Positions 3,599-51,687 of a DNA stretch of 64,000 bases are shown one piece after another; the stretch's first letter is position 1, and each line of letters begins with the position of its first letter. Made by a program: the position numbers and the translations under genes. The stretch comes from an uncultured Bacilli bacterium (GTDB lineage Bacteria > Bacillota_I > Bacilli_A > RF39 > UBA660), in assembly GCA_934130235.1 (NCBI GenBank), contig CAKOXU010000001.1:8794-72793 (forward strand), read 5' to 3'. A model generated the notes under the pieces. It had not been told where the DNA came from. It was given only the letters and a program-made list of their open reading frames with translations, and ran no database searches.

Positions 3599-4525
3599 TT
3601 ATTTATCCATAATACTTCTCCATGTACTTGGAAATCCCATTTTATCTAAAAAAGTATTTATTCCAACTGTATTTGTTTTTCCATCTAATATATCGACTTC
3701 ATAACTTATTTCATTTATAAAATCCCTAAATTCATCTGTACTCAATAAATACTTCATAATAATAACTACAGAAAAGACATCGTTTTTTCCTTTTATATAT
3801 TCATCATCAATTCTTTGTATATTTAAATATTCATGATAATAACAATCTGGTATAGATCTTTGTGTCTTATGATCATATAATATATCTTCATGAGCACATA
3901 AATTTCTATAATTAGATAATATAGATAAATATATAGATAATGTTTCTACATCTAAATTATATATGCTTGCTATATCCTGTTGATCATTATATTCAAGTAT
4001 ATTATAAAACTCTCCTATAATTCCAAAAGACAATACTTTTACTAATATCCACATAGGAATATAACCATAATTATTAATGTAGTGCATAGTAGCAGTATGC
4101 TGTTTCCCATTAATTCTAATTTGTCTTTTAACTTTGTTTAAGACATCATGAACTTGTCTTACTTTCATAGGATCATGAGAAAAGTTTTTAGGATTTAAAT
4201 AATCCTTTTCTTTAAATCCATACTTTTTTGATAATTCATACGAAAATAATGATTTAATATTATTTTCTACTATAAGTAAATTTTTAAAAAAAATATTTCT
4301 TATCTTTCTATCAAAAACAAACATAGCATATAATTCTTCAAAAGTAGTTCCATTTATAAAATCAGTTCCATTTTCCTTTAAAAACAAGTGTCTATAACCG
4401 TTAATAAAAAAGTAATTCTCTCTAAGTAATATCTCTTTAGTTTTTTCAAGATCTTTTATTACTAATCCCCTATTTTTGAAAATTTCTACCTGCTCGTCTA
4501 AATTCTTAAATACCTTTTTACTCAT
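3599..4525 (-). CDS. Abi_2 family (AbiD/AbiF-like) abortive-infection protein
   Basis: N-terminal IFKNRGLVIKDLEKTKEILLRENYFFINGYRHLF matches the Abi_2 N-terminal pattern. About 308 aa is typical for the family. Confidence 0.55.
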   Translation of the reverse strand: MSKKVFKNLDEQVEIFKNRGLVIKDLEKTKEILLRENYFFINGYRHLFLKENGTDFINGTTFEELYAMFVFDRKIRNIFFKNLLIVENNIKSLFSYELSKKYGFKEKDYLNPKNFSHDPMKVRQVHDVLNKVKRQIRINGKQHTATMHYINNYGYIPMWILVKVLSFGIIGEFYNILEYNDQQDIASIYNLDVETLSIYLSILSNYRNLCAHEDILYDHKTQRSIPDCYYHEYLNIQRIDDEYIKGKNDVFSVVIIMKYLLSTDEFRDFINEISYEVDILDGKTNTVGINTFLDKMGFPSTWRSIMDK

Positions 4526-8585: not shown

Positions 8586-10106
8586 CTAAATGTACTCTAT
8601 ATAATTATTATAATCTTTAATTAGTTCTTTTATGAATATTGAAGGTCTCTTCTTATCTACTAATAAATATACATCCGTTTTAGTACGCGTTAAAGCTGCA
8701 TAAAAAAGTCTTCTTTCTTCTTCATATGGATAATTATCCTTGGAACGTTTAACATAACTTAAAATTTTCTCATCCTTCATTTTGTTTGGTATACCTAATA
8801 TATCATCTATATTATTTATTATAACAACACATTCGCTTTCTAATCCTTTTGATGCATGAATAGTTAAATACTTTATCTTAATATTCTTATATATTATGTA
8901 ACCATCAACACACTTAAAATATTTATTAATATCAAAATTATTTCTCCCTAGTATTAATATTTCTTTATGTTCTCCTATTACTATATCTAACAGTTTATAT
9001 AAATTATTAGAATACATAATTTTTATAGGCTTTTTAATATGTTTGTTTGATTTTAATTTTTTATATAATTGATGCTTGTTCTTCATAATAAATGAACCAG
9101 CCACATTAATAAGTTCTTGTGAATTTCTATATGTATTATTGATTCTCAGTATTTTTGAATAACCATAGTATTTTTTAAAATTGATAAACATTCCTATATC
9201 ACATCCATTAAATCTATATATAGACTGATAGTCATCTCCAACACATATAATTTTAGCTTTTGTTTTATCTATAATACTTTTTAATAGTAAATATCTAACA
9301 TAAGATGTATCTTGATATTCATCAACTATTATATATTTATATTTTAAATTTGTATCTTTTACTTTATCAATAGACAAAGTTATCATATCATTAAAATCAA
9401 TACTATTAGTACTTTTAAGTTCTTCTTCATACAAATAATAAATATCAAAAATAATACTAACCAAATATTTGTTTTTTTTAATTTTTAAAAAATAATCTAT
9501 TTTATAGTTATTAGTTTTAAATAAATTAATAAATGTTATGACAAGTTTTTTTAGATTTAAAAATTCTTTTGTTTTTAATATTTTACTATATTCAGTATCA
9601 ATATAACCTAAAATGTACTTAAGTCTCATAACCATTTCTGCATTATTATGAATAATACAATTAAAATACTCATCAATAATATATTCCAATGTATCAGTAG
9701 CTGAAATAGTATAACCTTTACCTATAATGTTTAAAGCAAGTTTATGAAATGTATATACCTTTATATTATAGTTATTATACTTTTTTAAATTTTTTTCTAA
9801 ATTTTTAGCAGCTTCTCTAGTAAAAGTAATACAAAGAATATCCTCTTCTTGTATCTGTTTCCTTTCAATTAAATACATAATCTTACCAATCATAGTAAGA
9901 CTTTTCCCACTCCCAGCTCCAGCTACTATAAGAGTAGATGTTTCATCTGTTATTACAGCTTTTCTTTGTTCTAAATCTAAAGAATATCCATTGACATTTG
10001 ATAATAAATTATCTGTATTATAAAGCTCTTTTTTTATAAAAATTTTATTTAATCTATTTATTTTAATTCTACTATATTTACTTTTATAAGTATTATCTAA
10101 ATACAT
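8586..10106 (-). CDS. Compact UvrD/PcrA-like SF1 DNA helicase (506 aa)
   Basis: Motifs I AGAGSGKS, II IIVDEYQD, III VGDDYQSIYRFNG, V TIHASKGLE and VI FYAALTRTKTDVYLL are all present. The 1B/2B accessory domains are very short. Confidence 0.8.
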   Translation of the reverse strand: MYLDNTYKSKYSRIKINRLNKIFIKKELYNTDNLLSNVNGYSLDLEQRKAVITDETSTLIVAGAGSGKSLTMIGKIMYLIERKQIQEEDILCITFTREAAKNLEKNLKKYNNYNIKVYTFHKLALNIIGKGYTISATDTLEYIIDEYFNCIIHNNAEMVMRLKYILGYIDTEYSKILKTKEFLNLKKLVITFINLFKTNNYKIDYFLKIKKNKYLVSIIFDIYYLYEEELKSTNSIDFNDMITLSIDKVKDTNLKYKYIIVDEYQDTSYVRYLLLKSIIDKTKAKIICVGDDYQSIYRFNGCDIGMFINFKKYYGYSKILRINNTYRNSQELINVAGSFIMKNKHQLYKKLKSNKHIKKPIKIMYSNNLYKLLDIVIGEHKEILILGRNNFDINKYFKCVDGYIIYKNIKIKYLTIHASKGLESECVVIINNIDDILGIPNKMKDEKILSYVKRSKDNYPYEEERRLFYAALTRTKTDVYLLVDKKRPSIFIKELIKDYNNYIEYI

Positions 10107-10173
10107 ATTTCCTCCATTTATTTGATTATATATATTTTATATATGTATATCAATAAAGTTCATAAAGTTTTCA

Positions 10174-10201
10174 CAAAAAAAGTAAGCATAGTGCTTACTT
10201 T
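10174..10201 (-). terminator. Rho-independent terminator after the ClpX-like gene
   Basis: AAGTAAGCA-CTAT-GCTTACTT hairpin followed by UUUUUUU on the minus strand. Confidence 0.7.
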
Positions 10202-10206
10202 TAATA

Positions 10207-11721
10207 CTATTTTGAAATACTGTATTTTTTATAATCTTTCACAGTGTCTTTAGTTAAAGTAATCTTTTTAATCTTTTTATCAATCAACACATCATCATAA
10301 ACATCTGCAAGAGTAGATAAAACAATATTCTTTAGTCCTCTAGCTCCTGTACCTAATTTAATAGTTTTTGTAGCAACCTCATCTATATAACCTTTTGTAC
10401 ACTTAAAATCTATTCCTAAATCATATAGATATTCCCTTGTTAAATTCAATTGACTAATATCAGATTTAGTCAAAATTTTTATCATATCAGACTTATCTAA
10501 ATAATTAGTATATGTAACTGTACCTATACGTCCTAAAAATTCACTAGGAACTCCATATTTAATTAAATCTTCATTAGTTATTTTAACATCACTAATATTA
10601 CTACTATCAATAGAATTGTTAAATCCTAAAGATTTATTTTCACTCGTTTTATTTTTATATAACCCTTCAAAAGCACCCATAAATACTATAGTTAAATTCG
10701 ATGTATCAAATAAAACTGTTCTAGCATCAAATGGGCCACCTATATCAAGTTCTATTTTTTCTCTATCCATCATTTTTAGCATCGAATATAGAACATCATA
10801 ACCAGTTGGACCAGTTGTATCAGTAAGCTTTTTATCTATTTCATCCACTATTAAAATACCATTTTGAGCCGCTTCTATATCATCATCTGCAGCAGTAATT
10901 AACCCTTCTAACATACTATAAACACTTTTGCCTACATAACCCTCTTTTGTATATGCAGTAGCATCTGCTTTAAAAACTGGAACATTTAATTCACGCGCTA
11001 TTATATTCATTATCTCAGTTTTACCAGTTCCCGTAGGACCCGCTATTAAAATATGTGATTTATGCTTTGGATTATTAGATAAAAAGTTAGTTATTATTGT
11101 TCTCGTAACATCATCTACAGCTTTTTGCTGCGAAATAATACTTTTGTTAACAGTTTTTCTAAGTCTCTTTAAATTTATATTAGATATTGTTCCAGCTGAT
11201 GTCTTAGTTTCTTTTTTTATATCTTTTAGCGCGAGTTTTACCTTTTCATTAAGTTCAATCATTTGTTTTTTAAAATCAGGAAATGTATCCTCATTCATAT
11301 TAAGTAGTTCTTCTAATGGTATATTAACATGCAATTTATAAGATTCATCATAATCAAAGCTAATGTTCTCTTCCTCAACTGTAAAGTTTGAAAAATTAAA
11401 TTTGATTAAATCATATTCGTTAATATCTTCGTTATAAACATTGGCATAATAATCTGAATAATTATCCATAAAATACTTTCTAATCATTTCAACCTCTGTT
11501 AATTCTCCATCGTTATAAAGTGAATCTAATTTATCTTCCTCAATAGCCTCACTGTAATACTTACCATTATTTACTACAGGATCTACTATAGGTTCATATA
11601 CGACACCTAAAGCAGACTGAAAATCGCCATTTTCAAGCATATCACCCTTTATAGCTGATATAGGAACATAAAGAAAATCAGCCTCATTTAACTCGACTTT
11701 TTTATATATAATTGCTACCAT
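10207..11721 (-). CDS. ClpX-family AAA+ unfoldase paralog with a non-canonical ~215-aa acidic N-domain and no zinc-binding domain
   Basis: Walker A GPTGTGKTE, pore-1 loop TKEGYVGKS, Walker B ILIVDEIDK, sensor-2 GTGARGLKNIV, and LGF in the IGF-loop position. The N-terminal region is D/E/N/Y-rich with no Cys4 motif. Confidence 0.8.
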   Translation of the reverse strand: MVAIIYKKVELNEADFLYVPISAIKGDMLENGDFQSALGVVYEPIVDPVVNNGKYYSEAIEEDKLDSLYNDGELTEVEMIRKYFMDNYSDYYANVYNEDINEYDLIKFNFSNFTVEEENISFDYDESYKLHVNIPLEELLNMNEDTFPDFKKQMIELNEKVKLALKDIKKETKTSAGTISNINLKRLRKTVNKSIISQQKAVDDVTRTIITNFLSNNPKHKSHILIAGPTGTGKTEIMNIIARELNVPVFKADATAYTKEGYVGKSVYSMLEGLITAADDDIEAAQNGILIVDEIDKKLTDTTGPTGYDVLYSMLKMMDREKIELDIGGPFDARTVLFDTSNLTIVFMGAFEGLYKNKTSENKSLGFNNSIDSSNISDVKITNEDLIKYGVPSEFLGRIGTVTYTNYLDKSDMIKILTKSDISQLNLTREYLYDLGIDFKCTKGYIDEVATKTIKLGTGARGLKNIVLSTLADVYDDVLIDKKIKKITLTKDTVKDYKKYSISK

Positions 11722-11743
11722 ATTTATCCCCCCAAATTAACAA

Positions 11744-11977
11744 TTATTTATTAGTATTAGTGTAATAATTATATTCAGCAAGCGCATATGATACATAATC
11801 TAACTCTTCACTATACTCATAATTAAGAATACTTTCAATATCATAAATCAATTCAGATACATTATTATAATTATCAATATTTATATTATATTGTTTTAAA
11901 ATAGCTAGATTCTTATCAGAAATATAAATATTATTATGCATTTTAAGAAAATCTTCATCATGCGCGACAAAATCCAT
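11744..11977 (-). CDS. Small acidic hypothetical protein encoded 22 nt upstream of the ClpX-like gene
   Basis: Start set at MDFVAHDE, which has an AGGTGA RBS and a TGtTATAAT extended -10 just upstream. The ORF-track start lies 10 codons upstream. Confidence 0.45.
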   Translation of the reverse strand: MDFVAHDEDFLKMHNNIYISDKNLAILKQYNINIDNYNNVSELIYDIESILNYEYSEELDYVSYALAEYNYYTNTNK

Positions 11978-12060
11978 AATATCACCTACACGTATTATAA
12001 CACACAAACTTGACTTTTAAACAAAAAGATGTATAATATAAGCATTTGAAGGGGGATTTT

Positions 12061-12984
12061 ATGAAAGAAATAGTAATAAATCATAACGGAGAGGTGTATA
12101 CTGGATTTAAACAACCACCTCTATCAGATAAAAAATATTTAACTAAAAAGGATAATTGTTTTGATAATTTAATCGATTTTGATAAATTAGAAGTAGAATA
12201 TAGTGAACAAAAAAGAATCAAAAAAGAAAAAAAACATGACAACACTGATGGTTACTATAGAGACTGTGGTAAAGGTACTATACCAAACAAACATCTTAAA
12301 ACTATGTTTAAAGATTTAACTAAAAACAAAAAGAAAAGATTTATTATTTCTAGTGCTATGCAAAAGCTAGAAATGGTTAAAACAAGAGATAATCTTATTA
12401 ATACGCTTAATTTTTTAATTGAAGGTTATATGATTCCAGCAAGTACTAATGAATATGATGATGAAATTAAAAATGAATATGCTAGAGCTAGAATTATGGA
12501 AATGAAAGCCGAAAATGTTGATTATATATTAAGATCACTTGAAGAATACCCCGAATTAACTCTTTCAACAATGATAAAAGGTATCATTGACAACTATCAA
12601 AAAATATATATTGAATCTTTATCAGAACATAAATTGTTAGAATCAGAAATAATTAAATTAACTACAAGTAATATGGATGAAGTATTTACACATATAAACG
12701 AAAAGTTTATCGGTACATCTAAAGAAACCGGCTTATATAATTATTGTTGTAAAAAAGTTGGAAGTATTTTAGATGATACATATATTAATACACATAGTTT
12801 TCACTTATGTTCAGATTGCGATCCGGATATATTCTTAAGTTGTCCTAAAATATTAGATAATAGATTTAAAAAAGATCATTATGATTTTATAGATGAATCA
12901 CTTATAGTTAAAGATACAGAAACAAATGAAATAGACAGTTATGTAGTACAAAAATGTAAAAGATTTAAAAATAGCACTCGATAA
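12061..12984 (+). CDS. Hypothetical protein with a C-terminal Cys cluster (CSDCDPDIFLSCP)
   Basis: ATG at 12061 preceded by a GAAGGGGG RBS and a TGTATAAT -10. The ORF track starts it at a TTG 15 nt upstream. Confidence 0.5.
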   Translation: MKEIVINHNGEVYTGFKQPPLSDKKYLTKKDNCFDNLIDFDKLEVEYSEQKRIKKEKKHDNTDGYYRDCGKGTIPNKHLKTMFKDLTKNKKKRFIISSAMQKLEMVKTRDNLINTLNFLIEGYMIPASTNEYDDEIKNEYARARIMEMKAENVDYILRSLEEYPELTLSTMIKGIIDNYQKIYIESLSEHKLLESEIIKLTTSNMDEVFTHINEKFIGTSKETGLYNYCCKKVGSILDDTYINTHSFHLCSDCDPDIFLSCPKILDNRFKKDHYDFIDESLIVKDTETNEIDSYVVQKCKRFKNSTR

Positions 12985-12998
12985 TAATCGAGTGCTTT

Positions 12999-13625: not shown

Positions 13626-14312
13626 TTATTGTAATTCTAAAATATAAACAGATTGTTCATGATTACTACCGCGAGTACAAGTAATTAATGTCAACGTACT
13701 TTTAGAAGAATCTCTAAATATTGCCACCTCACCTGTTTTTTCAACTGTATATATATTTGCAATCTTATAAGTATATTTTTTGCCACCATAAGTTAAATAT
13801 GCCAAATCACCTAATTTAAGTTTGTATAATTTATCAAAATAGCAATATGAACAATTTCCCGAATGGGCAGCTAAAATTAAATTATTATTTTCTTCATCTG
13901 GATAAGTTGATCCTCTAATAACAGTAACATTTCTCGATACTCTATTTCTATTAGAATTTAAATCAAAAAATCCTCTCTTTAAATTTATTTTTGGTATCTC
14001 TAATACTCCTAAATAACTTACAGTACCCGTACTTGGTGTAGGAGTTGGTGTTGGTTTAGTATCAACTGTGTCAGTTGGTTCTTCTTCAGTATTATCACCT
14101 GTATCTGGATTAGAATCAGTATTTTCTGGAGTCTTTGATGTATCTATATTTTCTGGCATCTCAGATTCAAATAACTTAATATTCATCTCAGAAAAGGCTT
14201 TTTCTCTTTTTGAAACTAAATATTCTGAACTAATCATAAAAATACCAGTACAAACAAGCAATAAACCTATAAATAAAACCGTACTAGTTTTAAGTTCAAG
14301 CTTTTTTTTCAT
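13626..14312 (-). CDS. Sortase, a class A/B-like transpeptidase
   Basis: N-terminal TM, a Pro/Thr linker TKPTPTPTPS, catalytic His in LILAAHSG and the TLxTC Cys motif as TLITCT. Confidence 0.75.
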   Translation of the reverse strand: MKKKLELKTSTVLFIGLLLVCTGIFMISSEYLVSKREKAFSEMNIKLFESEMPENIDTSKTPENTDSNPDTGDNTEEEPTDTVDTKPTPTPTPSTGTVSYLGVLEIPKINLKRGFFDLNSNRNRVSRNVTVIRGSTYPDEENNNLILAAHSGNCSYCYFDKLYKLKLGDLAYLTYGGKKYTYKIANIYTVEKTGEVAIFRDSSKSTLTLITCTRGSNHEQSVYILELQ

Positions 14313-15073
14313 CGCCTTAAATGACCGCCTATATTGTCATCATACTCAAGATTATAAGATTCTCCTGCAAGAACTGCTTCTTTCATTTCTTTTGACTCAT
14401 AATCATCTCTTAACAAATTACTATCATACGTACTAGTAGTAGGCTCATAACTTTTGGCTATTTCAGATCTATTCTCCAATTCTTCTTGATCATAATGTCC
14501 AGCTAAAACAAAGCCACCCAATATAACAGCTGCACCCGCTGTAACAGCAATAGTTGTTTTTAATTTATCATACTTATTAACCCTATTTACTCTAGCTTTT
14601 TCAGGTTTAACTCTTCTTTGAATATCATTATTAGCAGTCATTATTAAACTAACCAATTTTCTTTGTGAAGATGCATCCATTCCATATAATTCAGAAGCCT
14701 TATAACCATTAATAATTTGATCAAAATCACTAATAACTATCTTAGTTGTATAATCATTATTAGCAGGAGTATAATGAATATTTTCATCAGATAAAGCAGG
14801 ATTGTCAACAACAAAACCTTTTCTTACAGAAATATTTGGCATTCTAAAAACTAAATTATTCCCTTCTATATTAAAAGTGCCCTTTACTGTCTTTCCTTCT
14901 AAAACTTTACTTATTTCATCTAAAACTCTTGAAATCTCGTCATTTCCTTCGTTAGTAAGATTATTATAACTTCCAATATAATCAATATTAGTATTACTTA
15001 TTTTATTTTCTGAAAGCACAAGTTGACTTACACCACTCAATTTTATAACTTTAATCTTTTTTTCTAATTCCAT
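14309..15073 (-). CDS. Hypothetical single-pass membrane protein with an acidic C-terminal tail
   Basis: Overlaps the sortase start by 4 nt. TM helix TTIAVTAGAAVILGGFVLAG. No LPXTG motif. Confidence 0.5.
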   Translation of the reverse strand: MELEKKIKVIKLSGVSQLVLSENKISNTNIDYIGSYNNLTNEGNDEISRVLDEISKVLEGKTVKGTFNIEGNNLVFRMPNISVRKGFVVDNPALSDENIHYTPANNDYTTKIVISDFDQIINGYKASELYGMDASSQRKLVSLIMTANNDIQRRVKPEKARVNRVNKYDKLKTTIAVTAGAAVILGGFVLAGHYDQEELENRSEIAKSYEPTTSTYDSNLLRDDYESKEMKEAVLAGESYNLEYDDNIGGHLRR

Positions 15074-33853: not shown

Positions 33854-35869
33854 TTATAATTCCTTTTCTTCTTTATCTTCACTTTGAGCTTCTTTTATTT
33901 TTTTTATTAATTGCTCTTTTGTCATTTTTGAAATGTTCTTAATTCCTTCATCTTTAGCTATTTCTTTTAATTCAACTAATGTTAAATCATCCATACTTGC
34001 TATTGGATAAGATTGATCTATTTCACCATCTTCATCTGGCATACACCCATTTTTTACCAAATAATCTATTTGTTCTTTTGTAATTGTTTCATATTCTAGT
34101 AATGTATTAGCAATCAAATCTAATAAATCCTTATTATCTTCAATAATCTTTTTAGTTTTAGCGTAGCACTCATCAATTATTTTCTTAATGTTTGTATCAA
34201 TCTCAAAAGCTACTTGTGATGAAAAATTACGACTCTTATTATAATCCCTACCTAAAAACACACTTGACTCTTGATGTTCGAATTGAATAGGTCCTAAATC
34301 ACTCATACCATATTCAGTAACCATTGCACGCGCTATTTTAGTAGCCTTTTCAAAGTCATTATGAGCACCTGTTGTTACTTCATTAAACATGAATTCTTCT
34401 GCAACCCTACCGCCTAATAATCCACTAATAGTATCCAATAATTCACCCTTAGTAGATAAGAATGTTTCTTCTTTTGGTAGCATTAAATTATAACCACCAG
34501 CCTGACCACGAGGTATAATAGTAATTTTTTGAACTTCATTAGCACCTTCTAATTTAATTCCTACTACTGCATGGCCTGCTTCATGGTATGCAACTATTTT
34601 CTTTTCTTTCTCAGTATACTTTTTCGTTACTTTAGCAGGACCCATTAAAACTCTATCATGTGCCTCATCTATTTCTGCCATAGTAATTGCTTTTTTATTT
34701 CTTCTAACAGTAAGTAATGCAGCTTCATTAAGTAAGTTCTCCAAATCAGCTCCACTAAATCCAACAGTTCTTTTAGCAATATTTTCTAATTTAACACCTT
34801 TAGCAAAGGTTTTACCTTTAGCATGAACTTCAAGTATTTCTTCTCTTCCCTTAACATCAGGCAAATTAACTGTAATTTGTCTATCAAATCTTCCAGGTCT
34901 AAGCAAAGCAGGGTCCAAAACATCGGGCCTATTCGTAGCAGCTATTACAATAATACCTTCATTTGCTCCAAATCCGTCCATCTCGGTTAATAATTGGTTT
35001 AAAGTTTGTTCACGTTCATCGTGTCCGCCACCTAAACCTGTACCTCTTTGTCTACCAACTGCATCTATTTCATCTATAAATATTAAACAAGGTGCGTTTT
35101 GTTTTGCTTGTCTAAACATATCTCTAACACGAGATGCTCCTACACCTACAAACAACTCAACAAAATCAGAACCACTTATAAAATAAAATGGTACATTAGC
35201 TTCTCCAGCAACAGCCTTAGCAAGCAATGTTTTTCCAGTACCTGGAGGACCAACTAATAAAACACCTTTAGGTATTCTAGCACCCATTTTTTTAAATTTA
35301 GAAGGTTCCTTCAAAAAGTCAATAAGTTCCTGTACTTCTTCTTTTTCTTCAGTAAGACCAGCAACTTTATCAAATTTTACTTTATCATTATCACTATTAA
35401 GTCTTGCTCTACTTCTACCAAAATCCATAGATTTATTATTAGCACCTAGTTGTTTTGATATAAAAATATATCCAACACCCACTATTAATATGATAGGCAA
35501 TACATTTACTAAAAATAATAAAAGATAACTACTACCAGGGTCTTTACTTACAGTAATCTTAAAATCTTGTTTATCCTTTTCTTCGTATATTTTTTTAATA
35601 ACCTCATCAGTAAGTGTTGCTGATGCACTAAAAGTTTCTTTTTCAGCATATCCTTTCAACTTACCAGTAAGATTATATAATCCCTTACTACTATTTTGAG
35701 TTATATTTAACTCAGTAATTTTGTCTGATTCTAATGCATCTATAAACTCACTATAAGTTAAATTATTAACTTTAATATTTAATATATTCATAAAATAAAA
35801 TATACCAACTAAAAGTAATATCAACAATGCATATGAAGTCAAACTACGTTTAACTGTCTTTTTATTCAT
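33854..35869 (-). CDS. ftsH: ATP-dependent zinc metalloprotease FtsH
   Basis: [11 protein letters not shown] motif and the HEAGH zinc site. Confidence 0.95.
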
Positions 35870-49569: not shown

Positions 49570-51687
49570 ATGAATAATAATTACGAAGAAAACTTAGAAA
49601 ACGTGTTAGAAAAATATGGTAGAGATATAACTTCAGATGCCAAAGATGGAAAATTAGATCCAGTTATTGGTAGAGACGAAGAAATACGTAATATTACTAG
49701 GATTCTATCAAGAAAAACTAAAAATAATCCCGTTTTAATTGGTGAACCTGGTGTGGGTAAAACAGCTATTGTAGAAGGTTTAGCACAAAGAATAATTAAA
49801 GGAGATGTTCCTACTAGCCTAAAAGAAAAAACAATATGGGAACTAGATATGGGAGCATTGATTGCTGGTGCAAAATATAGAGGTGAATTTGAAGAGAGAC
49901 TTAAAGCAGTCCTAAAAGAAATTAAAGATTCTGATGGAAAGATAATTCTTTTTATAGATGAAATACACTTAATAGTAGGAGCTGGAGCTTTAGAAGGAGC
50001 AATGGATGCTGGCAACCTACTTAAGCCAATGCTTGCTAGAGGCGAAATTTTATGTATTGGAGCCACTACTCTAAATGAGTATAGAAAATATATAGAAAAA
50101 GATGGTGCTCTTGAACGTAGATTTCAAAAAGTATTAGTAAATGCTCCATCAGTTATAGACACAATAACTATATTAAGAGGTCTTAAACCAAAATTTGAAG
50201 TATATCATGGAGTTTCTATTAAAGATAAAGCACTTATAGCAGCTGCAACATTATCCGACAGATATATAACTGATAGATTTTTACCTGATAAAGCCATTGA
50301 CTTAGTTGATGAGGCATGCGCTACTATAAAAGTACAAATGGAATCAGTTCCTACAGAACTTGATACACTAACAAGAGAAATTATGCAACTTCAAATAGAA
50401 AAAGAAGCATTAAAAAAAGAAAAAGATGAACTATCTAAAAACAGAATTAATGAAATAAATAAGGATTTAGAAAAGTTAAAAGAAAGAGAAAACAAGCTTA
50501 GAAAAGATTGGGAAGAAGAAAAAAACATCAACACTAAAATCAGCAAAAAAAAGGAAGAAATTGAAAAAGTCAATTTTGATTTATCAAAAGCTGAAGATAA
50601 TTATGATTATGAAAAAGCTGCTATATTAAGGCACGGAACTTTGCCAAAACTACAAAAAGAATTAGATGATTTAAACGAAAAAAATAAAAATGATATATTA
50701 AGTGATACAGTAGATGATGAATCTATAGCATTAATTATTTCAAAATGGACTAATATTCCTGTAAGTAAACTAGTTGGTGGTGAAAAAGAAAAACTTATAC
50801 ACTTAAAAGAAAATATGAAAAAAAGAGTAAAAGGTCAAGATCAAGCACTTGAACTAGTTTCTGAAGCTATTAAAAGAGCACGTGCTGGAATCAAAGATCC
50901 AAATAGACCAATTGGATCATTTATATTTTTAGGACCTACAGGTGTTGGTAAAACAGAAGTAGCTCGTACATTAGCAAACGAATTATTTGATGACGAAAAA
51001 CATATAGTAAGAATTGATATGAGTGAATATATGGAAGCACATTCTGTATCTAGATTAGTTGGAGCTCCTCCAGGCTATGTTGGATACGATGAAGGTGGAC
51101 AATTAACTGAAGCTGTAAGAAGAAATCCATATAGCATTGTCTTATTTGATGAAATTGAAAAAGCGCATAAAGATGTTTTTAATATTTTATTACAAATATT
51201 AGATGATGGTAGAATAACTGATTCTCAAGGAAGAACAGTTGATTTTAAAAACACTATAATTATTATGACATCTAATCTTGGCAGTGAATATGTTTTGGAA
51301 AATAATGATCAATCTAATAAACTAGTTATGGATGAATTAAGACATACTTTTAAGCCTGAATTTATTAATAGAATAGATGAAATAATTATTTTTAATCCTT
51401 TAAATAAAAATACACTTTATGAAATATTAGATAATATAATAAAAAATATAGAAAAAAGGCTTAGCAACATTAATATAAAAATTATATTAACTGATAAAGC
51501 TAAAAAGTATATTATAGATAATTCATTTGACGAAAAATATGGGGCAAGACCTATGAAAAGATTTGTAAGTAAAAATATTGAGTCTATACTTGCCAACGAT
51601 ATAATCAATGACAACATTCAATTTGGTGACCATATTACTATTGATATTAATAATGATAATTTTTATATAAAAAAAGCAATTAATTAA
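49570..51687 (+). CDS. clpB: ClpB-type disaggregase lacking the N-terminal domain
   Basis: Starts at the AAA-1 linker LEKYGRDIT. Two Walker A motifs, GEPGVGKT and GPTGVGKT, and a long coiled-coil M-domain. There is no coding room upstream for an N-domain. Confidence 0.9.

Follow-up and report, generated by a model that had tools for sequence, protein, structure and literature searches.

What does a divergent ClpX-like gene do when it is found between a small acidic open reading frame (ORF) and a compact helicase gene? This question arises from a stretch of 64,000 nucleotides (nt) of an uncultured Bacilli bacterium (contig CAKOXU010000001.1 of assembly GCA_934130235.1), which was analysed at its full length and is called the window below. 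Three minus-strand genes encode a small acidic protein, a ClpX-like protein of 504 amino acids (aa) and a superfamily 1 (SF1) helicase of 506 aa. An initial annotation, made from the sequence alone, had placed them in an accessory region and regarded them as a candidate for an uncharacterised module that serves defence or DNA processing. All three ORFs are present, and the description of the parts is right: a divergent ClpX unfoldase with an unrelated N-terminal domain (N-domain), a small acidic ORF and a compact UvrD-superfamily helicase. The idea of a defence or DNA-processing module does not fit what was found, namely a conserved core context and no match to defence systems, phages or plasmids. 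We somewhat favour the reading that the locus holds a re-engineered ClpX-family unfoldase with a small partner, that the helicase is a separate gene and that no defence island is involved.

The assignment to the ClpX family was assessed with motif, profile and structure databases. Pfam recognizes the domains AAA_2 and ClpB_D2-small in the 504-aa protein. The ClpX-type motifs cited in the initial annotation (Walker A and B, pore-1, sensor-2 and LGF) were all found, and the series reads GPTGTGKT at residue 228, GYVG at 261, ILIVDEIDK at 289, LGF at 365, EFLGR at 394 and GARGL at 459. The pore-1 sequence GYVGK (residues 261-265) is conserved in the family and degenerate in its deep members L040 and L043. 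The top NCBIfam models are two ClpX equivalogs, although both cut-offs are missed (170.8 versus 359 bits for PRK05342; 153.5 versus 370.75 bits for TIGR00382). Rival models score far lower (HslU 54 bits, ClpA 57 bits). The nearest relatives in the PDB point in the same direction: the top 12 distinct sequences are bacterial ClpX proteins (E values down to 7e-40, residues 221-496), and the next three are mitochondrial ClpX proteins. Judged by these matches, the 504-aa protein is a ClpX-family AAA+ unfoldase.

The N-terminal zinc domain is the means by which ClpX engages adaptors and many substrates. In the window protein a Cys4 zinc-binding domain (ZBD) is impossible because the whole sequence contains only one cysteine. 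In addition, Pfam finds no match in residues 1-180, and a tblastn search with the ZBDs of E. coli and B. subtilis gave no match in the family loci. The absence of the Cys4 domain had thus been read correctly. Its replacement was described as an unrelated domain of ~215 aa; the unrelated nature stands, whereas the size has to be revised to a folded module of ~110 aa and an acidic linker of ~70 aa. In an AlphaFold2 model based on a 44-sequence alignment (mean predicted local distance difference test score, pLDDT, 85.7), residues 1-110 form a confident β-rich module (pLDDT >90). Residues 111-182 constitute the acidic linker (pLDDT 43-81), in which 147-174 form a long helix; the AAA+ module sets in near residue 183. 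A separate model of residues 1-182 agrees (pLDDT 86.3). Comparison of this model by Foldseek, a check proposed with the initial annotation, found no relative at E ≤ 1e-3 in the PDB or among viral structures (BFVD).

In the 44-member family alignment, the N-terminal module (N-module) has the consensus IAIxFEKxxLGxDxxxFKPVxxIxGxYD…YFGxxTTIxELK, and the linker varies in length and sequence. Beyond the two closest relatives, identity to the window protein is ~13-29% in the N-region and about 55% in the AAA+ core. A profile search of 1.84 billion representatives with the N-region yielded 234 clusters at 50% identity, and in all matches the N-domain lies at the extreme N-terminus. Matches of 650-730 aa still consist of the N-module and a ClpX-type AAA_2 domain, with longer linkers or repeated N-modules, and short matches resemble fragments. 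Since no other architecture was seen with it, the N-domain defines the ClpX-like family. It has no Pfam model, and source annotations name its carriers 'AAA family ATPase' or plain 'ClpX'. In some members of 726-729 aa (P0286, P0342), two or three separate stretches align to the N-domain profile, a pattern that suggests a tandem duplication of the N-module ahead of the AAA+ core.

To describe the extent of the family, a word-indexed search with the ClpX-like protein was used, which returned 1185 matches. The top 120 are almost all 480-545 aa long, and most of them cover 99% of the query at 38-46% identity. A metagenome scan with the family-specific motif retrieved 6 loci only. The family is large, uncharacterised and restricted to uncultured low-GC gut Bacilli. 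In the literature we found no report on a ZBD-less ClpX or on the Clp content of RF39, RFN20 or the Mollicutes-related orders. Six deep members (L008, L009, L010, L027, L040 and L043) are 26-38% identical to the window protein and carry an N-terminus of the same style. When the AAA+ cores were placed in a neighbour-joining tree, canonical ClpX proteins of many phyla grouped together, mostly with 53-76% identity to E. coli ClpX (the outlier L011 has 44%). The family, its deep members and the proteins of L058 and L059 lie outside this cluster, with ~25-35% identity to canonical ClpX.

The ClpX-like proteins of L058 (9704-10849) and L059 (1928-3022) are only 381 and 364 aa long and have almost no N-terminal domain; a 759-aa PcrA-like helicase is encoded ~1.2 kb downstream of the former. 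Two metagenome contigs of 24.5% GC, L056 (9275-10843) and L057 (4419-5996), encode ClpX proteins of 522-525 aa with two N-terminal CxxC…CxxC modules; by their AAA+ core, these proteins fall into the canonical ClpX cluster (43% identity). We did not accept the L056 modules as ClpX zinc fingers, as Pfam does not recognize the N-termini of L056 and L057. The same applies to an 87-aa Cys-rich ORF directly after the deep-member ClpX-like gene of L008 (11632-11895; CxxC-x19-CxxC, a zinc-ribbon-like spacing), which has no Pfam match.

Clp ATPases that bind ClpP are marked by a tripeptide of the [ILV]GF type, which ClpB and HslU lack. The LGF of the window protein aligns column for column with the IGF loop of E. 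coli ClpX, exactly as had been claimed. G366 and F367 are invariant in the family alignment, and [ILV]GF is kept in the six deep members. The loop that follows directly (residues 368-375) has low pLDDT in the AlphaFold2 model, as would be expected of a flexible docking loop. The invariance of [ILV]GF throughout the family argues for coupling to ClpP and is the main argument that the unfoldase works with this peptidase. The gene context is of another kind than the canonical tig-clpP-clpX arrangement, as the initial annotation had recognized, and neither clpP nor tig lies near the ClpX-like gene. Canonical ClpX loci of other phyla, which make up most of the matches listed in a reference-genome scan with the full alignment, served as controls. 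They have clpP directly upstream and a ZBD, both of which are absent from the family loci. The window contains a second Clp ATPase, which was considered as a proxy for the presence of ClpP and rejected. It is a ClpB of 705 aa (49570-51687, one of the few plus-strand genes of the window) without the N-terminal domain, and it aligns to residues 144-840 of T. thermophilus ClpB with 879 bits. This protein is uninformative about ClpP because ClpB does not dock ClpP.

The small acidic ORF upstream had been annotated with 78-87 aa. An acidic and conserved gene is indeed present, and its product most likely has 77 aa, starting at ATG 11977. This ATG is preceded by an AGGTGA ribosome-binding site (RBS), the annotation of the contig at ENA likewise gives 77 aa, and the alternative TTG start at 12007 falls inside a TG-extended -10 element. 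The gap of 22 nt to the start of the ClpX-like gene was confirmed. In 8 of 8 loci, an orthologue with a G-rich RBS precedes the ClpX-like gene by 9-30 nt. Identity of these orthologues to the window protein is 48-68%, and all have the invariant C-terminal sequence EYNYYxxTNK. A profile search found 787 relatives, nearly all of them stand-alone proteins of ~89 aa without a Pfam domain, and 19 further matches of the small protein coincide with ClpX-like matches in the size of the longest contig. The fold and profile check proposed for this ORF detected no relative in the PDB or Pfam, nor was one found in PHROGs or PADLOC. A relationship to the N-domain was also considered and rejected, since profile-profile comparison found none. 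The conserved operon-like spacing, the co-distribution and the invariant tail suggest that the small protein is most likely a dedicated partner of the ClpX-like unfoldase. The upstream small ORF was seen in none of the six deep members.

The third gene encodes, as annotated, a 506-aa SF1 helicase with all UvrD motifs (Q, I, Ia, II, III, IV, V and VI). Pfam recognizes UvrD-helicase and UvrD_C, the latter only over the last ~60 of 350 model positions (residues 409-482), which is consistent with a reduced 2B region. The protein is smaller than the full 1A/1B/2A/2B architecture of PcrA, UvrD and Rep (~650-750 aa) and scores far below the cut-offs of these housekeeping enzymes (PcrA 183 versus 911 bits, UvrD 132 versus 1144, Rep 162 versus 951). 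It is therefore not the PcrA orthologue of its clade, a case that the initial annotation had raised against its own proposal. The best NCBIfam model is PRK11054, DNA helicase IV, with 304 bits (cut-off 543); residues 15-498 align to model positions 169-676, and positions 1-168 remain unmatched. The suggested likeness to Gabija GajB has to be abandoned. The PADLOC models of GajB and DRT-helicase match at ~150 bits over the generic UvrD core only, GajB chains of the PDB reach 37-39 bits in an alignment of the Walker A region, and the match to helicase IV is better and spans the full length. Moreover, the OLD-family ATPase/TOPRIM nuclease GajA is not adjacent; the neighbours of the helicase gene are the ClpX-like gene and a glucosaminidase gene. 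The RNA-polymerase-associated HelD of the B. subtilis type was rejected as well, as it is not among the PDB matches at E ≤ 1e-5. Members of the helicase family are 60-75% identical across the clade, and IMG labels one of them 'DNA helicase-4'. By sequence comparison, the protein is a conserved backbone gene product of the lineage, neither PcrA nor GajB, and is best termed helicase-IV-like.

Whether these genes reside in an accessory island was assessed by comparing the gene order around members of the family that are ~40-55% identical to the window ClpX-like protein. The shared order reads (phosphoketolase)–metallophosphatase–SDR–Met-γ-lyase–RluA-type pseudouridine synthase–(DUF1292–SLT)–(SpaA)–sortase and continues from the sortase with a membrane protein of 203-206 aa–small ORF–ClpX-like–helicase–glucosaminidase-like–P-type ATPase–…–Abi_2–trypsin-like protease. 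Collinearity around the genes extends over more than 17 kb and was observed in 7 of 8 sampled loci. The sole departure is L005, where a DDE_Tnp_1 transposase (9692-11440) takes the position of the helicase while the small ORF and the ClpX-like gene are intact. The Abi_2 gene (3599-4525 of the window, minus strand) is syntenic in the three distant relatives that reach it (L003, L061 and L063). Because this order is common to the relatives, Abi_2 and the sortase are fixed backbone genes and not island cargo. srtA/B sortases have been reported to be absent from RFN20 and ML615J-28 (PMC10868615); together with the peptidoglycan genes, the sortase tentatively points to RF39 or an order close to it as the lineage of the window. 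Compared to the window, the proteins of L003 and L007 show identities of ~70% (P-type ATPase), 68-70% (helicase), 66-70% (RluA), 53-58% (sortase), 42-53% (small ORF) and 42% (ClpX-like). Mean pairwise distances are 0.30 for the helicase, 0.46 for the AAA+ core and 0.70 for the N-module.

The window as a whole is origin-proximal core chromosome. It carries the C-terminus of gyrA, the signal recognition particle RNA gene, dnaX, mfd, metG, a dnaB-type helicase gene and tilS-ftsH, together with mreB, spoIID, genes for a MurJ-like flippase and FemAB, and the truncated clpB, nearly all on one strand. The claims of an accessory stretch, of a sortase island and of missing conserved synteny could thus not be upheld; the neighbourhood and island check proposed with them revealed a collinear region, including the sortase, even where the ClpX-like protein is only ~40% identical. 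The deep members have varied housekeeping neighbours (mutL/miaA, rpsB-tsf-frr, fmt/RNase J/mraZ, serS, valS), and a UvrD-type helicase is within reach only in L043, at a distance of 8 kb. These comparisons show that the ClpX-like gene is vertically inherited in a conserved core chromosome. The initial annotation had named a vertically inherited core gene without linkage to the helicase as a case that would speak against it. This is largely what we observed, as linkage is lost in the deep relatives, although the two genes are adjacent in the sub-clade.

Consistent with the chromosomal context, no sign of mobility was found. Searches by tblastn against 50,697 phage and 72,556 plasmid records returned matches of the generic AAA+ core only; no record covers at least 80% of the ClpX-like query, and the small protein has no match in the phage records. 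Among 2.9 million viral contigs, scans with the family-specific motif and with the small protein detected no relative. PADLOC gave no system-specific match for the ClpX-like or the small protein. Patchy spread, variable flanks and mobile elements, as expected of a mobile defence island, were not what we observed, and a phage-defence island is not supported.

The positions of the features in the window are listed in the table. The promoter-like sites carry little weight in DNA of 26% GC because they are no commoner than expected (47 versus 51.6 in shuffled sequences), whereas terminator-like sites are enriched (3 versus 0.4 expected). The extended -10 element claimed as the small ORF's own promoter is therefore present as a TG-extended TATAAT site of uncertain meaning. 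The claimed intrinsic terminator before the helicase gene was found as a hairpin with a T-run; no comparable one follows the ClpX-like gene in L003, L060, L061, L062 or L063, a weaker candidate is present in L007, and the hairpin at this position in L005 precedes the transposase. The strong terminator between the two genes is specific to the species of the window.

Table. Features of the ClpX-like locus (window positions)
Feature	Position	Strand	Remarks
Small acidic protein gene	11744-11977	-	77 aa from ATG 11977; pI (isoelectric point) ~4.1
ORF including the alternative TTG start of the small protein	11744-12007	-	
Promoter-like TTTAAA-16-(TG)TATAAT, 5' of the small ORF	11994-12021	-	pattern match only
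ClpX-like gene, 504 aa	10207-11721	-	
ClpX-like residues 1-110, family-specific β-rich N-terminal module	11392-11721	-	replaces the ClpX zinc-binding domain
ClpX-like residues 111-182, acidic variable linker, partly helical	11176-11391	-	family alignment and pLDDT
ClpX-like residues 183-504, ClpX-type AAA+ module, large and small subdomains	10207-11175	-	Pfam, NCBIfam and PDB matches
LGF tripeptide (residues 365-367) where ClpX has its ClpP-docking IGF loop	10621-10629	-	
Intrinsic-terminator-like hairpin and T-run, 3' of the ClpX-like stop codon	10178-10202	-	
Promoter-like TTGATA-17-TATAAT, 5' of the helicase gene	10125-10153	-	11/12 matches; GGAGG RBS precedes ATG
Helicase-IV-like SF1A helicase gene, 506 aa	8586-10106	-	

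Three further genes of the window were noted. Between the gene of the 204-aa membrane protein and the small ORF lies a plus-strand ORF of 312 aa (12046-12984) with its own TTGACT-16-TATAAT promoter-like site, a bidirectional terminator (12973-12996) and a Cys-rich C-terminus. It was found in L001 and L002, which belong to the window species, and is absent at this position from L003, L005, L007 and L061-L063. It has no match in Pfam, NCBIfam, PADLOC or PHROG and looks like a lineage-specific insertion into the otherwise collinear region. A 254-aa ORF (14309-15073, minus strand) between the DUF1292 and sortase genes has no Pfam domain; in this slot, the variable part of the neighbourhood, relatives carry a 417-429-aa SLT protein (L003, L005, L061) or a SpaA protein (L062, L063). 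The FtsH homologue (33854-35869, minus strand) shows a C-terminal Rho_N match (PF07498, residues 629-665, E = 9.5e-9), which is unusual for FtsH.

Several observations weigh against a ClpP-coupled unfoldase with its own partner and a separate helicase. Searches of the 64-kb window and of ~250 kb of family loci detected no ClpP. The AAA+ core shares only ~30% identity with canonical ClpX, stands outside its tree cluster and evolves about twice as fast as the neighbours RluA and P-type ATPase; such divergence and rate would suit a housekeeping orthologue and a specialised paralogue equally well. A mirror-tree comparison correlated the distances of the small protein with those of the N-module (Spearman 0.75; Pearson partial 0.71 when controlling for AAA+). 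Unrelated neighbours correlate equally or better (RluA 0.85, P-type ATPase 0.86, membrane protein 0.86), and we rejected this co-evolution signal as non-specific. Furthermore, helicase and ClpX-like gene occur on common contigs throughout the sub-clade, and co-transcription of the two in other species is possible, as the terminator is not conserved. Assuming that the protein is a specialised paralogue, possibly independent of ClpP, it would act together with its small partner, beside a canonical ZBD-bearing ClpX (and ClpP), as a dedicated remodelling chaperone or a niche-specific degradation factor for one client class. The very low identity to canonical ClpX, the missed equivalog cut-offs, the faster rate and the context without clpP or tig would all agree with this, and so would the CxxC-rich ClpX of the comparably AT-rich contigs L056 and L057, which clusters with canonical ClpX. 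On the other hand, the N-termini of the latter are not matched by the Pfam ClpX zinc finger, no genome was shown to carry both ClpX forms, and the invariant [ILV]GF loop speaks for ClpP coupling. The divergence could also be explained by the fast evolution that has been reported for these Bacilli orders in general (PMC10868615). We regard the paralogue as a possible but rather doubtful explanation.

The role of the helicase bears on two other explanations. ClpX is known to remodel the MuA transpososome, and by analogy the unfoldase, its small partner and the helicase might form a three-gene operon without a defence function that acts on DNA-protein complexes, for instance by taking apart or degrading a client that is bound to DNA or to the helicase. 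In 7 of 8 syntenic loci the genes adjoin one another in the same orientation, 19 helicase matches coincide with ClpX-like matches in the size of the longest contig and thereby extend the adjacency, most relatives have no clear terminator between ClpX-like gene and helicase, and a UvrD-family helicase lies within 1-9 kb in the distant family loci L058 and L043. However, this adjacency cannot be separated from the regional collinearity. The gap to the helicase gene measures 94-283 nt across loci, compared to 9-30 nt between small ORF and ClpX-like gene; there is a sharp difference in evolutionary rates, four of the six deep members lack a nearby helicase, and in L005 the helicase alone is displaced by the transposase. 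Because of these gaps, the differing rate and the lost linkage in deep members, the adjacency is explained by synteny; the helicase is probably not part of the ClpX-like module, and such an operon is improbable. Even less credit can be given to an anti-phage or anti-plasmid module of a ClpX paralogue, the small protein and a GajB-like helicase in an accessory island. It would account for the helicase being in the size class of GajB with matches to the GajB and DRT-helicase models, for the Abi_2 gene 4 kb away and for the fast evolution of N-module and core, which is one possible sign of conflict. These model matches are generic and helicase IV is the better, full-length match, and no GajA or OLD nuclease is adjacent; neither the ClpX-like nor the small protein matches a specific defence system, and both the phage and plasmid records and the viral contigs lack the locus. 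Above all, the locus is collinear across the sampled species, Abi_2 included, and not patchy, so that synteny in the core chromosome largely refutes the defence reading, which we consider very improbable.

If the favoured reading of a re-engineered unfoldase with a small partner is correct, the ClpX-like protein would assemble as a hexamer and translocate substrates through its pore by means of ATP. It would dock on ClpP via the LGF loop and deliver substrates for degradation, and the N-module would take over the role of the zinc domain in capturing adaptors or substrates. The small protein (77-89 aa) would be co-transcribed with the unfoldase and might serve as an adaptor, a regulator or a constitutive substrate. 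The C-terminal tail of SspB binds the zinc domain of ClpX, and by analogy the EYNYYxxTNK tail is a candidate docking or recognition peptide. The helicase-IV-like SF1A helicase would be a separate backbone gene that adjoins the ClpX-like gene because the whole region is collinear in the clade. A bolder version, which we put forward tentatively and think unlikely to hold in full, is that a self-contained recognition system has evolved anew in one clade of gut Bacilli. In this case the interface of zinc domain and adaptors would have been replaced by the new N-domain and a cognate partner that tethers via EYNYYxxTNK. The fast evolution of N-module and AAA+ core would then reflect changing client specificity or conflict, for example with a phage-encoded inhibitor.

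ClpX variants of this kind, with a small partner and an N-domain for which no fold relative was detected, constitute an uncharacterised, widespread family. More than 1000 proteins have exchanged the zinc domain for one to which neither the PDB nor BFVD holds a fold relative, but have retained the motor and the ClpP-docking loop, and a conserved small partner was gained in one sub-clade. The family thereby offers a natural experiment on how AAA+ proteases rewire their substrate selection. It also matters for the annotation of abundant uncultured gut Bacilli, as pipelines would overcall a housekeeping ClpX or suspect a defence system.

Compared to known systems, the protein shares with canonical ClpX a single AAA+ module of the HCLR clade with a D2-small lid, Walker A/B, GYVG, the sensor-2 GAR and [ILV]GF. 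It differs by the β-rich module of ~110 aa and the acidic linker in place of the Cys4 zinc-binding domain, by a gene position away from clpP and tig and by an evolution faster than that of its neighbours. The small protein resembles SspB-type ClpX adaptors by analogy only: it is small and acidic, ends in an invariant extreme C-terminal peptide and is encoded upstream of the unfoldase. In contrast to these adaptors, it has no sequence or profile similarity to solved proteins or Pfam families, and it cannot bind a ClpX zinc domain because the ClpX-like protein has none. The helicase agrees with E. coli DNA helicase IV (HelD) in a full-length alignment of the SF1A core and in all helicase motifs, but lacks its N-terminal region of ~170 residues and stays below the 543-bit cut-off; the RNA-polymerase-associated HelD of B. 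subtilis and M. smegmatis is not among its PDB matches at E ≤ 1e-5. With Gabija GajB it has in common the size of ~500 aa, the UvrD superfamily and generic PADLOC model matches. Unlike GajB, it has no GajA partner and is a fixed, syntenic gene of the chromosome.

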